64,000 nt of DNA from NCBI GenBank assembly GCA_963797095.1, contig CAWCNY010000001.1, forward strand, positions 32,001 through 96,000. The letters are read 5' to 3'. A program made the position numbers and the translations under genes. Below are positions 33,475 to 42,018 of this stretch, in pieces. The notes beneath the pieces were generated by a model. It was not told where the DNA came from. It did not search any database and saw only the letters and a list, made by a program, of their open reading frames with translations. The stretch comes from an uncultured Chloroflexia bacterium (GTDB lineage Bacteria; Chloroflexota; Chloroflexia; QHBQ01; JADMIH01). How positions within the stretch are numbered: the stretch's first letter is position 1; each line of letters begins with the position of its first letter.

Positions 33475-33592
33475 GCCCCGCAATGGCCTACTTTCCCACA
33501 GCCGGGTAGCTGAAGTATCATCGGCGCTGTACTGTTTCACTTCCAGGTTCGGGATGGGGCTGGGTGGGTCCAGTACGCTCTGACCACGGAAC
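33475..33592 (-). rRNA. rrf: 5S rRNA
   Basis: CCCATCCCGAAC...GAAGTGAA...CGCCGATGATAC...GTGGGAAAGTAGG conserved motifs; ends approximate. Confidence 0.92.
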
Positions 33593-33794: not shown

Positions 33795-36986
<3,192 letters not shown>

Positions 36987-37463
36987 TAACTCTCAGCCTA
37001 CCCCCTCCGTTCACAACTCCGACAGGAGGTGAATGAAGGAAGCACGCAAAAAGCGCATCAAACAATTATTTCATTCGTAGCGCAAATGTGGTTACTCATA
37101 TCACACACTTGATCGGTAATCTTATGTGCGAAATTGTATCCCAATTTTGCTTTTCTTCGTTGCTTGCTATTCTCTTGGTAAGGTGCTGGCACCCCTAGGT
37201 GCTCACTCCCTGAGGAGCCTGTCAGCCTTGTGACTGCCAGTCTTCGACCTTGTGCAGGGCGAGGAGCGGAAGTCGTTGCGGCTTATTTTGTATTTTGGTG
37301 TTTAGTGAGCTTGCAGATGTGGTCGAATGGCAACAAAAGAGGCTTGGGCACTCGCGCCTCAAGCCTTGGCGGCTGTTGGTATGCGAGATGGCCTATCTGG
37401 TTGTGGCCTCAACTATGTGCATGCTTTGCTCTTTCTTTGCACCATTTCCCAGGCGCAACACTA

Positions 37464-37492
37464 AGTATACTAAAGCCTCAGGCCTTTGTCAA
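37464..37492 (-). promoter_or_regulatory. Sigma70 promoter for 23S-5S
   Basis: TTGACA-N17-TATACT; boxA-like GCACCTTACCAA at ~37175-37186 downstream. Confidence 0.85.
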
Positions 37493-37677
37493 GCAGATTT
37501 AAGCCCTTTTCAATCGATTTGCCAGGGATCATTGTTCAATTTGCCAGGGATCATTGTTCGCTAATCAAGTTCAGAGTGCTTATGGAGTTTGGTTGGCATA
37601 GCATATTCAAGTGACATGAAAATGTGTGTCCCATATGCGATAATATTGAGGAACATGGCACTCCTTGGATAGTGCTG

Positions 37678-38574
37678 ATGAGAGACAAGCAACAAACATT
37701 CGCATTGTTCTTTCCCGAGCCTTTGGCCAATATAGACCAGGCTAATCTCCTTATGTCGCGCGTTCAGCGCGTCGAAATGTTACTCAGTGTGGCGCGCAAC
37801 AATCCGGCCCAGCTAAATTGGCTTGCAGCACACGGCATCCGGGCTATTTTTCGTGTAGAAGAGCCATCGCGGGGGAATATCGCCGAGGTGGCTGCTTCTT
37901 ATTACCGACCTGACGGGCGTGTTAGCGTTACTCATAGGCTTGCTGAGATCAGGGCAAGCGCGCCCGGTCTGACTATCGAAGCTGTTATCGCGGGTAATGA
38001 ACCCGAAGTTGAATACGACCTCCGCCGCAACACCCCCACCTGGGGCGACCTACCCGAGGCTACTTTTCCGCAGGGACGGGTCTGGGAACACCGCTTTGCT
38101 GTCAGTGAATTGCGCCGGTTGCTGGCCCCTACTGTGGTGGTAGCGCCCGGGTGGTCGCATAAGCAGCAAACACCACGCGATGCTCCCGAACCTGGACGTG
38201 CCACGTGGGGCCGCATACTGGCGGACGTATACAACCAGGGCCCCGCTGCCATGCACGCGTATTGCATCAACTGGCTCGGCAGTGAAGACGAACACCGCTT
38301 GCTTTGGTGGGTGAAGCACGAGCTTGAGCGGATCCATAGCGACGTGTGGGTTGATGAGATCAATGTGGTAACTCATACACTCGATAGCGAGCCTGTTGAG
38401 AGGATGCGAGCGGTGTTGGGGATGTATGACCTGATCGCGGCCCAGGACTGGTCATCGGTGATAAAGAGCTTCTGCCCGTTCGTAGCAAACGGGCGATCTG
38501 ATCAGGGGTGGTCAAACATGATTATGAATGACCGGAACTGTTATAGCCTGCTGGCGCAGTGGATTCAGACTTGA
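37678..38574 (+). CDS. Clan GH-A-like glycoside hydrolase (TIM barrel) in the 16S-23S spacer
   Basis: AGNEP (acid/base), AMHAY and VWVDEIN (nucleophile) motifs; start uncertain (37624 or 37678). Confidence 0.6.
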   Translation: MRDKQQTFALFFPEPLANIDQANLLMSRVQRVEMLLSVARNNPAQLNWLAAHGIRAIFRVEEPSRGNIAEVAASYYRPDGRVSVTHRLAEIRASAPGLTIEAVIAGNEPEVEYDLRRNTPTWGDLPEATFPQGRVWEHRFAVSELRRLLAPTVVVAPGWSHKQQTPRDAPEPGRATWGRILADVYNQGPAAMHAYCINWLGSEDEHRLLWWVKHELERIHSDVWVDEINVVTHTLDSEPVERMRAVLGMYDLIAAQDWSSVIKSFCPFVANGRSDQGWSNMIMNDRNCYSLLAQWIQT

Positions 38575-38578
38575 GGTT

Positions 38579-38633
38579 GGTGAATCAAAACAGCGCAGCC
38601 GGTACAAAGACCGTTGCGCTGTTTTGATTCACC
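38579..38633. terminator. Long hairpin between the converging ORF and tRNA (bidirectional terminator)
   Basis: GGTGAATCAAAACAGCGCA...TGCGCTGTTTTGATTCACC inverted repeat. Confidence 0.7.
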
Positions 38634-38635
38634 GG

Positions 38636-38708
38636 TGGACCTGAGGAGACTCGAACTCCTGACCTCCGCCGTGCAAAGGCGGCGCTCTCCCAGCTAAGCT
38701 ACAGGCCC
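38636..38708 (-). tRNA. tRNA-Ala(TGC), CCA not encoded
   Basis: Cloverleaf GGGCCTGTAGCTTAGCTGGGAGAGC...TTGCAC...GTTCGAGTC; G3:U70 pair. Confidence 0.95.
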
Positions 38709-38720
38709 ATACTGCCCGTT

Positions 38721-38749
38721 ATTATATCAACTCCGGACCTACTCCGCAA
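38721..38749 (-). promoter_or_regulatory. Sigma70 promoter for tRNA-Ala
   Basis: TTGCGG-N17-TATAAT ~12 nt upstream of the tRNA. Confidence 0.7.
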
Positions 38750-38762
38750 ACTACGCTCAAGC

Positions 38763-38786
38763 AAAAGGCACCCTCGGTAGGGTGCC
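38763..38786 (-). terminator. Terminator downstream of 16S
   Basis: GGCACCCT-ACCG-AGGGTGCC followed by TTTT. Confidence 0.7.
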
Positions 38787-38999
38787 CTGGCCTTGGCCAA
38801 CTGAAGGGTGGAGACAAGCACAGAGAACGAGACGACAAGAAAGGTGTTCATCTTGAGCAAGGCTGATGGGTTAGAACAGCTTTGCTTTTGTTAGTCAATG
38901 ACTAACAGGTAGGTTACGCCGGTCCGAGGACCGACGGTTGACCTGGGATCGTCCGAACTTGGAGTGAGCAAGCTCACCAAGCGAGGAACAAACTCCCTA

Positions 39000-40558
<1,559 letters not shown>

Positions 40559-40767: not shown

Positions 40768-41044
40768 GGAAAAATGAGATAATTCTGTGGGATTTGCCAG
40801 GATTCTTTGTACACGAAGATGCGAAGGGTTGTTGGTATTGCGTATTGCGTAGTTCGTCTGGCGTAGTGCGTACTGCTTATTGCTTATCGGTTAGTTGGGT
40901 ATGGGGAAGAGGGTGCACTTGCTGGTTGGGCTTGTGCACCCTTTTCCTTTTTGGTTTGTTGGTTTTGTGCTCTGCCTTTGGGGATCTTGCTCGCTGTGGG
41001 CACTCTGTGGGTTGGTTGGCTGCCAAAGTGTGGTTTTGGAGAGC

Positions 41045-41072
41045 GAGATCCTTCGCTTCGCTCAGGATGACA
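41045..41072. repeat. REP-like palindromic unit
   Basis: GAGATCCTTCGCTTCGCTCAGGATGACA, a pattern resembling widespread intergenic REP-like units. Confidence 0.55.
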
Positions 41073-41146
41073 AGGACCTTGTTGGTTCGTTTGCTTGTGG
41101 GTCTGTCGTTAGCTGAGCGGCGGATGGTTGGCTTTTGGGATAGGAA

Positions 41147-41498
41147 TGGTGTCCCTGTGGCGCAACTGGTACTTGTGGCGCAGGGTTCCTCTTGCCTTTA
41201 GAGGGTGTGACACGAATGCACACTGGATTACTGCTCCGTGTTGGTCCCCTTAGGGGCCGGTGGTGGGAGACCGGAGCGGTTGGTGGTCTTGTTGGTGATG
41301 GTGATGGTGGTGATGGTGGTGATGGTGGTGTTGAGAGAGCCACCGGCTTCTGGCTGACCATTCTTTTGGTTTGTAAGGTGCTGGCAGTAGTGATGGTTTA
41401 TGTGGTTTGTAAAGGTGCTAACGCAAAGATACACAGGGACACCAGTCTTGTCTCTATGTCCTCCTTGCTGCGCGGCTCGGAGGTGAATTAGCTATTCC
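41147..41498 (-). ncRNA. Candidate structured ncRNA of unknown family
   Basis: Own promoter, 13-bp perfect closing stem (41432-41444/41147-41159), two boxA-like motifs, internal hairpins, no credible ORF. Confidence 0.5.
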
Positions 41499-41505
41499 AC
41501 TCTTG

Positions 41506-41534
41506 ATCTTAGCACAGATGTTCTGTGTTTGCAA
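41506..41534 (-). promoter_or_regulatory. Sigma70 promoter with operator-like palindrome in the spacer
   Basis: TTGCAA-N17-TAAGAT with extended TG; CACAGA-N3-TCTGTG / AGAAC-N4-GTGCT in the spacer. Confidence 0.65.
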
Positions 41535-41616
41535 GTAGCCATTGGAATGGTCTTTGACGAGTGACGAGTGGCGAGTGACGAGTGGCGAGTGGGAAGTATA
41601 TTGTATTTGGATAGGG

Positions 41617-42018
41617 TCAGCTTGCCTTTAGCTCTGAGGTGCATTCGGGGCAGCGGGTTGCGCCGAGGGGGATCGTGGAGAGGCAGTAGGGGCACTCTTT
41701 GGTGTTGGTGACGGCGGGAGTTGCGGGGCGCATTCTGTTGTAGGCTTTCAGGACGAGGAAGATGGAGAATGCTACTACAAGGAAGTTGATAAGCGCGTTT
41801 ATGAAGGAGCCGTAGGCGATTATGCCGTTGCCGATGTTGAAGGTGAGGCTGCTGAAATCGGGCTGTCCGAAGATGGCGGCGATTATCTGCATGAGGATGT
41901 CTTTCACGAACGAGTTGACCACCGCCCCGAACGCAGCCCCGATGATAACGGCCACCGCCAGGTCGAGCACATTGCCTCTATTGATAAATGCCTTGAATTC
42001 ATCGAGCATTTCTTTCAT
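41617..42018 (-). CDS. mscL: Large-conductance mechanosensitive channel with C-terminal zinc ribbon
   Basis: EFKAFINRGNVLDLAVAVIIGAAF; CPYC...CPEC tail. Confidence 0.93.
   Translation of the reverse strand: MKEMLDEFKAFINRGNVLDLAVAVIIGAAFGAVVNSFVKDILMQIIAAIFGQPDFSSLTFNIGNGIIAYGSFINALINFLVVAFSIFLVLKAYNRMRPATPAVTNTKECPYCLSTIPLGATRCPECTSELKAS

Follow-up and report, generated by a model that had tools for sequence, protein, structure and literature searches.

Introduction

Correia, ERIC, BOX and REPIN elements are 35-200 nt long, as a rule have terminal inverted repeats at their borders or a RAYT transposase as partner, and in some cases carry promoters. Miniature inverted-repeat transposable elements (MITEs) and the palindrome-associated transposable elements (PATEs) derived from IS200/IS605 are non-autonomous, non-coding and multi-copy, contain hairpins or inverted repeats, and expand in bursts within a lineage. 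OLE, GOLLD, ROOL and HEARO are RNAs of several hundred nucleotides with many helices and no open reading frame (ORF), generally present once or a few times per genome. To which of these does a cassette belong that lies ahead of a 16S rRNA gene in an uncultured Chloroflexia bacterium? The window analysed here, that is, the whole stretch of 64,000 nt from contig CAWCNY010000001.1, contains between mscL and the 16S rRNA gene a non-coding unit with its own promoter, boxA-like motifs and a long inverted repeat. This cassette is a real and unusual repeat element, and neither an rRNA leader nor a one-off regulatory RNA. It is probably a lineage-restricted, duplicatively spreading, non-coding unit of promoter plus RNA that bears an antitermination signal of the rRNA type.

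With Correia, ERIC, BOX and REPIN, the cassette has a rather loose likeness: it is dispersed, non-coding and intergenic, forms stable hairpins and has a lineage-specific copy number, but it exceeds them several times in length, has an internal inverted repeat and bears a boxA of the rRNA type. Unlike MITEs and PATEs, it has a complete promoter and lacks terminal inverted repeats, a recognisable parent element and clear target duplication. In size, in its many helices and in the absence of an ORF it is comparable to OLE, GOLLD, ROOL and HEARO, from which it differs in being multi-copy and without a match in Rfam and in having a narrow range, while theirs is much wider. The nearest described category is that of putative mobile promoters (PMPs), which are homologous non-coding sequences that share 80% identity or more along 50 nt or more, promoter elements included, upstream of unrelated genes (Matus-Garcia, Nijveen and van Passel, 2012; PMC3575422). 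They were defined on 100-nt windows, come mostly as pairs, and move by unknown means; Correia, ERIC and REPIN are named in the same paper as intergenic repeats (PMC3575422). The cassette satisfies the identity and length thresholds of PMPs and is found upstream of non-homologous genes, but unlike them it is 400-660 nt long, exists in 16-30 copies and comprises a full promoter, a folded RNA body, a boxA and a terminal hairpin.

Outside rRNA operons, boxA is described for suhB and for CRISPR arrays and leaders of other bacteria, where it confers on RNA polymerase a resistance to Rho as it does in rRNA; the printed consensus is UGCUCUUUAACA for Escherichia coli and AUGAUCUUUGAAA for Bacillus subtilis (PMC5725501, PMC13753749). 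Like the rrn, suhB and CRISPR leaders, the cassette places a short boxA-like motif shortly after a promoter, on an untranslated transcript. Unlike them, it is multi-copy and mobile and is not linked to rRNA, Nus genes or CRISPR; moreover, its motif lies inside a long-range helix rather than upstream of one, and its consensus differs from the two that are printed there. Nothing comparable was met in the literature on mobile promoters and on boxA outside rRNA, although no search was aimed at repeats of Chloroflexota.

A multi-copy family with a conserved anatomy

The window copy spans 41556-40897 on the minus strand, the strand to which the window coordinates of all cassette features refer, and lies in the 849-nt gap from the mscL stop to the -35 element of the strong 16S promoter. 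Its parts and flanks are listed below in the direction of transcription; across copies, the unit measures about 400-660 nt.

41557..41591, minus: tandem array of five heptamer units (CACTCGY), 5' flank, outside the copied unit; the same units are arrayed at dozens of loci
41535..41556, minus: A-rich, UP-element-like upstream region, the 5' end of the copied unit, where homology between copies begins
41506..41534, minus: promoter, with -35 TTGCAA (41534-41529), 17-nt spacer and TGTG-extended -10 TAAGAT (41516-41506)
41524-41511, minus: spacer palindrome AGAAC-N4-GTGCT
41498-41485, minus: 5' hairpin P1
41483-41460, minus: 5' hairpin P2 (CCUCC/GGAGG), which folds in 26 of 26 copies examined
41432..41444, minus: 5' arm of the long-range inverted repeat P3
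41419-41407 and 41385-41373, minus: two boxA-like motifs
about 41333-41278, minus: C/A-rich tract with (ACCACCATC)n, variable
41160..41277, minus: conserved 3' domain, made of the P5 multibranch (41277-41233), P6 (41223-41205), P7 (41204-41188) and P8 (41181-41160)
41147..41159, minus: 3' arm of P3
40948..41146, minus: optional module with a REP-like two-hairpin repeat (41071-41041), in this place in 6 copies, elsewhere or absent in the others
40947-40905, minus: terminal hairpin with 14-nt arms, 93% complementary, inside which lies an 8-bp core noticed earlier
ending at 40897, minus: conserved 3' end motif CCCCATACCC
40896-40833, minus: second heptamer-type array, between cassette and rRNA promoter
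40828-40800, minus: recurrent CTTCG module, between cassette and rRNA promoter

The promoter, spacer palindrome, boxA-like motifs and C/A tract had all been placed correctly by a first-pass annotation of the window, as had a 13-bp stem enclosing about 270 nt: the arms of P3 are perfect over 13 bp and enclose 272 nt, and a repeat search extends them to 21 nt at 86% complementarity. The whole unit is kept at 15 other loci of the source genome (6.02 Mb; referred to as G000), and these features are therefore beyond chance. The C/A-rich tract, on the other hand, is missing or much shorter in most copies and is thus no conserved functional part, while the 3' domain is the best-conserved block of one of the two types of copies described below (type I). 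The upstream region is longer in other copies, many of which have phased A-tracts.

How large is the family, and how far does it reach? When G000 was searched by BLAST with the intergenic region, some 15 additional loci appeared, with 69-90% identity over 300-600 nt. R1, a covariance model that was built on the 5' domain and works mainly by sequence because the first RNAalifold fold of this domain took a local hairpin instead of P1 and P2, has 16 matches in G000, 15 of them at 88 bits or more and one degenerate, and 30-32 matches in G017, the genome of the closest relative by GlnA identity (93%, against at most 88% for the rest). There was no match in 38 other genomes, 24 of the genus and 14 more of the order; the searches scored 111-150 first-look candidates per genome, many of the genomes being fragmented and three of the set (G016, G021 and G022) being flagged as unpublished. 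An exact 22-nt pattern of the 3' arm was found at 29 loci among 185,579 species genomes, of which 26 are on contigs of one Chloroflexia metagenome-assembled genome, and the remaining three, from other organisms, have no 5' domain. The same pattern gave two loci in a metagenome collection, one of them a true member. An earlier exact-pattern scan with a motif of the 3' domain, which is specific to type I copies, returned no locus.

The copies have in common an A-rich upstream region, a -35, the TGTG plus -10, two small 5' hairpins and the 5' arm of the inverted repeat, followed by a variable interior with a boxA-like motif, a hairpin right before the 3' arm and a short tail; their 3' part consists of the optional REP-like module, an A-rich run, a strong terminal hairpin and the motif CCCCATACC. 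As judged from this comparison, they form a multi-copy family with conserved anatomy. The interior is of two types. G000 has mostly type I copies plus a single type II copy, and in the sister species (G017) type II prevails, beside at least one type I-like copy.

The genes beside the 16 copies are unrelated to each other: they include the rRNA operon, genes for a MutS-like protein, a muconolactone isomerase-like protein, a peroxidase, DeoC, a DUF4491 protein, a phosphonate-binding protein, GlnA and a sigma-70 factor, and others. Relative to the next gene, 12 of the 16 copies point the same way, three are convergent and one is unclear; these counts do not rely on crude calls by ORF length, which are ambiguous for 6 of 11 copies in G000 and 6 of 14 in the sister genome. 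The prevailing orientation fits either selection against antisense read-out or an effect of sense read-through.

Several small repeats accompany the family. The heptamer arrays are of the kind called short tandemly repeated repetitive (STRR-like) and flank most copies, and in copies of the sister species (e.g., L115 and L123) they are also found within the cassette, where they separate the 5' arm from the boxA-like motif. The CTTCG module is about 50 nt long, ends in GTGTACAAA, stands 3' of heptamer arrays downstream of several copies (also at G000 C4:363679 and C3:447299), and is near-identical at the glnA and sigma-70 loci. The REP-like two-hairpin repeat stands alone at more than 20 further loci of G000, and its position relative to the cassette core varies, ahead of it in three copies and behind it in six.

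The boxA-like motif and the promoter

The 13-mer of the second boxA-like motif (41385-41373) is found again at 37190, some 200 nt ahead of the 23S gene, as the first-pass annotation had pointed out, and once more in the leader of another 23S gene, which is unlinked and lies on a different contig (C3:464150). In 6.02 Mb it occurs four times, the fourth time inside a coding region, while about 0.2 occurrences would be expected. The likeness extends beyond the 13-mer, since a local alignment of cassette and 23S leader over about 37-40 nt has 31 identical positions (score 31; the highest of 200 shuffles scored 28). From both 16S-leader boxA motifs the cassette motif differs by one or two positions, and every aligned copy of both species has at least one such motif. 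By its likeness in sequence, the motif can be assigned to the boxA type of rRNA leaders.

TTGCAA-N17-TAAGAT agrees with the consensus promoter at 8 of 12 positions, and it was not listed by the consensus scan because the threshold of the scan was nine matches. TGTGCTA is found in 18 of 20 aligned copies, the remaining two differing by one letter of TGTG. The TGTG sits one base before the -10, which keeps TAnnnT in both species and reads TATGAT, TATAAT, TATACT or TATCAT in the sister species. We take this TGTG to resemble the '-16' extended -10 of Gram-positive promoters. The same module of upstream region and promoter directly precedes at least three protein-coding ORFs, one of the glyoxalase family and two without a Pfam family; a guess that two of the ORFs behind promoter-only copies are both of the glyoxalase type holds for only one of them. 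There are also two places in G000 (C2:1038027 and C7:1407, both minus) where the promoter module leads into a short leader that contains a boxA-like motif and no structured core.

Folding, compensatory changes and coding potential

The 611-nt RNA of the minus strand folds at -165.5 kcal/mol, with z = -5.2 against 20 shuffles. In an alignment of 14 type II copies, the proportion of paired cells is 95.3%, and 18 of 99 pairs have compensatory changes, compared with a mean of 8.3 pairs in shuffled alignments, none of 500 of which reached 18, and with 5-8 in slid controls; one long-range helix is compensated at 5 of 8 pairs. In the alignment of type I copies, also 14 in number, 93.3% of cells are paired and compensatory changes affect 7 of 59 pairs, as opposed to 2.3 on average in shuffles and 0-2 in slid controls. 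Both consensus structures were derived from the very sequences on which they were tested and are thereby favoured over the controls. With this reservation, the compensatory changes appear to support the internal hairpins. Hairpin P2, which was judged from per-copy folds because MAFFT misregisters it between the two species, takes the forms CCUCC/GGAGG, CCCUCC/GGAGGG, CCCUCU/AGAGGG and CCCUCUUUG/CAAAGAGGG, with U.G intermediates. Quite different is P3, in which ten central positions are identical in 26 of 26 copies, save for G.U at one position in three copies.

The terminal hairpin is found in 20 of the 26 copies examined, at -15 to -32 kcal/mol; for the other six, the stretches ended before it or lacked the anchor motif. 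Can it be a terminator? Among hairpins after long ORFs of G000, of which 3,212 were surveyed, a U-rich tail is present on only 38 of 502, and this survey revealed no clear terminator rule; the organism seems to rely little on canonical intrinsic terminators.

The strand of the cassette was assigned from its promoter. RNAalifold energies and G.U counts, tried for the same assignment, say nothing about it, since the other strand is rich in G and U and its composition alone makes it fold better. A protein-coding gene was considered and rejected: the two longest ORFs have no third-position bias, with 89/86/82 and 112/79/85 substitutions by codon position, and their frames are broken among copies by 45 of 82 and 69 of 85 gap runs, in agreement with the earlier view that no credible ORF exists. 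Nor does the cassette belong to a known RNA family, be it 6S RNA, transfer-messenger RNA (tmRNA), RNase P, SRP, a riboswitch or a large ncRNA, for Rfam gave no match for the window copy at E up to 10 or for seven other copies at E up to 1, and ARAGORN found no tmRNA.

Insertion, duplication and turnover

The order of mscL and 16S is kept in the relatives G041, G004 and G017, so what lies between them there? In G041, the same TTGACAAGCCC 16S promoter is a mere 33 nt away from the mscL stop; in G004, the gap from mscL to the 16S promoter is about 300 nt and includes a further promoter-like site. Neither has a cassette. In G017 (C403:1953-5445), 3.5 kb of other DNA stand between mscL and the conserved 16S promoter, and the contig has no R1 match. 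Judging from these gaps, the cassette together with its flanking arrays is to be regarded as an insertion at the mscL-16S junction that is peculiar to this species.

A second line of comparison concerns the copies upstream of glnA and upstream of the sigma-70 gene, which are 99% identical over the core. Their likeness extends from the A-rich 5' end to CCCCATACCC and ends where the heptamer arrays start, the arrays themselves being diverged. At the sigma-70 site there is no copy in G017, G014, G041 or G004, though the flanking blocks align, while at the glnA site a copy exists in G000 and in the sister genome, and in G015 and G018 this site is short and holds no copy. Turnover seems to be high in general: of 20 copies of the sister genome whose flanks could be assigned a place on G000, only three are within 3 kb of a G000 copy, one of them in the opposite orientation, and median identity is 0.76 and 0.71 within the two genomes but 0.57 (maximum 0.65) between them. 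Together, these comparisons establish a lineage-specific amplification and the recent duplicative gain of at least one copy besides that of the window. Because the promoter, which lies upstream of the start site, is also copied, copying would occur at the level of DNA. A precise empty site was sought at one locus of the sister genome and was not found, the intergenic DNA there not being alignable.

Both ends of the unit share a similar short CCATACC-like motif, and heptamer arrays usually adjoin them. Inspected as possible target sites, the ends carry a similar, fixed motif and not variable duplications, and the flanks are heptamer arrays. The end motifs or the arrays could conceivably serve ectopic recombination.

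What kind of element is it?

If the cassette is, as we think probable, a spreading unit of promoter plus RNA, each copy would be a self-contained transcription unit. The A-tract upstream region, the -35 and the TGTG-extended -10 would drive an untranslated, C-rich RNA, which would fold co-transcriptionally into the 5' hairpins, into the closing long-range helix or local alternatives to it, and into the internal hairpins. The boxA of rRNA-leader type would load NusB and S10, so that RNA polymerase would resist Rho on this untranslated transcript as it does on rRNA, and the terminal hairpin of 13-14 bp would end or stabilise the RNA. Read-through, if any, would in most copies reach the adjacent gene in the sense orientation.

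Several findings weigh against this proposal. The long-range helix P3 shows no covariation, its ten pairs being fixed, and at the single pair that varies, 11 of the 26 copies have the mismatch A.C, 10 have A-U, 4 have G-C and 1 has G.U. For copies of the sister species, RNAalifold favours local hairpins for both arms, and one local arm hairpin covaries (U-A in seven copies, C-G in five). Thus, P3 is plausible as a modelled helix, and a switch between long-range and local pairings may be considered possible. The terminal hairpin, described earlier as terminator-like, is real, but its flanks are A-rich on the 5' side and C-rich on the 3' side and thereby resemble, by the E. coli rule, those of a terminator for the opposite strand; it also has a recurrent internal A.C mismatch, which is G.U on the opposite strand. 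Counts of G.U against A.C in the helices predicted for the sense strand, 14 to 12 in type I and 38 to 15 in type II, make no clear excess. Across the genome, the 9-nt boxA core occurs 44 times, no more often than expected (about 46). Finally, as far as spreading is concerned, a transposase partner, terminal inverted repeats and clear, variable target duplications were looked for and not found.

One may ask whether the copies serve a purpose in trans instead, as a domesticated multi-copy non-coding RNA (ncRNA) that would, for example, soak up NusB/S10, Rho or some other protein that binds RNA; this develops a decoy role proposed for the window copy at first. A strong-looking promoter with an A-tract upstream region, protective hairpins at both the 5' and 3' ends, internal helices that covary, and a frame and boxA conserved across two subfamilies with differing interiors are what such an RNA would be expected to have, and the C-rich, G-poor tracts presumably resemble Rho loading sites. 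Yet the family is confined to two sister species among 40 genomes of the order that were searched, loci turn over fast between these two, the RNA has an exchangeable interior and a C/A tract of varying length, and no partner protein has been identified, so that we hold a trans-acting role to be unlikely. Somewhat less credit still is given to a purely DNA-level mobile element, MITE-like or IS200/IS605 PATE-like, whose repeats and hairpins would be sites for a transposase acting in trans and whose promoter and RNA structure would be incidental. It would account for a multi-copy, non-coding, intergenic and lineage-specifically amplified unit with a recent 99% copy, for an inverted repeat of 10-13 nt that is invariant without covariation, for hairpins with a conserved internal mismatch, and for the short, similar direct motif CCATACC at both ends; four Y1 (HUH) transposase matches exist in G000. 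However, Y1_Tnp is found in 18 of 26 genomes of the genus and the cassette in 2 of 26, and the Y1 transposase therefore does not track the family, by which a PATE of IS200/IS605 or a REP/RAYT system was rejected. A MITE was rejected as well: there is a single long inverted repeat, and it lies inside the unit, some 110 nt away from the 5' end and at least 250 nt from the 3' end in long copies, and BLAST of the unit against the whole genome detects only non-coding copies and no longer coding relative that could be an autonomous element. The -10 and many hairpins are moreover kept in patterns like those of selection, compensatory changes included.

By far the least probable is the possibility raised by the first-pass annotation, that the cassette is a far-upstream leader or P1 promoter region regulating this very rRNA operon, perhaps under LexA. 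It shares the strand of the 16S promoter and precedes it by 770 nt, and its boxA is of the rRNA type, but G041 and G004 keep mscL beside the same 16S promoter without it, which excludes a conserved far-upstream leader; G017 has other DNA there, the second 16S gene of G000, with a promoter and a boxA of its own, is without a copy, and 15 other copies lie beside unrelated genes. For the same reasons an rrn leader was rejected. The suspicion of damage induction came from the spacer palindrome, in which GAAC-N4-GTGC is indeed one mismatch away from the perfect GAAC-N4-GTTC boxes in the spacers of the SOS promoters of G000 (lexA, dinB-like), and the upstream region of lexA also has a GAAC-N4-GTGC site. 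No perfect operator is present in the cassette, however; the left half is AAAC in place of GAAC in 6 of 15 strong copies of G000, and the GTGC half-site falls within the invariant TGTG extended -10, to which it belongs. LexA control is thus weakly supported by the sequence. What stands of the original proposal of a novel ncRNA gene is the anatomy of a promoter-driven, structured non-coding RNA; with about 16 copies scattered over the genome, the cassette is no single gene bound to the rRNA operon.

The rRNA operon and other genes

The genes around the cassette and the operon's own control elements, which lie outside it, are as follows.

gene end at 41617: mscL
40767-40739, minus: the rRNA operon's own promoter TTGACA-N17-TACAAT, kept beside mscL in G041 and G004
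40697-40686, minus: the operon's own leader boxA, with a small hairpin between promoter and boxA
40559-39001, minus: 16S gene of the rRNA operon of the window
38708-38636, minus: tRNA-Ala, between 16S and 23S
36986-33794, minus: 23S gene
33475-33591: 5S gene of the minus-strand rRNA operon

The 16S-23S spacer is about 2 kb long (window 36986-39001, minus) and contains the tRNA-Ala and then a separate TTGACA-N17-TATACT promoter with a boxA leader of its own, about 500 nt ahead of the 23S gene. The second 16S and the second 23S gene are on separate contigs (G000 C5:149241 and C3:464132), so at least one rRNA gene pair is unlinked. DNA 3' of the 5S gene is C/U-rich, as the 3' flank of the terminal hairpin of the cassette is C-rich. 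Two further genes of G000 were noticed. In recA (C6:978919-979708), the Pfam RecA match is divided between two adjacent frames (positions 1-137 and 137-262), which suggests a frameshift or an assembly error. A UvrB match (C2:588767-588895 and upstream) lies in an open frame of 1225 aa, which we take to far exceed the typical length of UvrB and which may mean an inserted element such as an intein.

Concluding remarks

For annotation, the lesson from this lineage is that a promoter, a boxA and a long stem near rRNA genes are no mark of an rRNA leader. The roughly 45 natural variants in two species are material from which the needed parts of the unit can be found. How far can the idea be carried? 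At its boldest, the cassette would be a self-spreading ncRNA gene with a captured ribosomal antitermination signal, of which 16-30 Rho-proof units deliver modified polymerase to their neighbours or titrate Nus factors; this is a doubtful reading, but if true, it would describe a family of mobile elements coupled to the rRNA synthesis machinery of the cell. Should the cassette be transcribed and its boxA work, it would be the first dispersed bacterial repeat known to combine an antitermination signal of the ribosomal type with a complete promoter, and it would give its hosts a ready-made means to rewire the expression of neighbouring genes.

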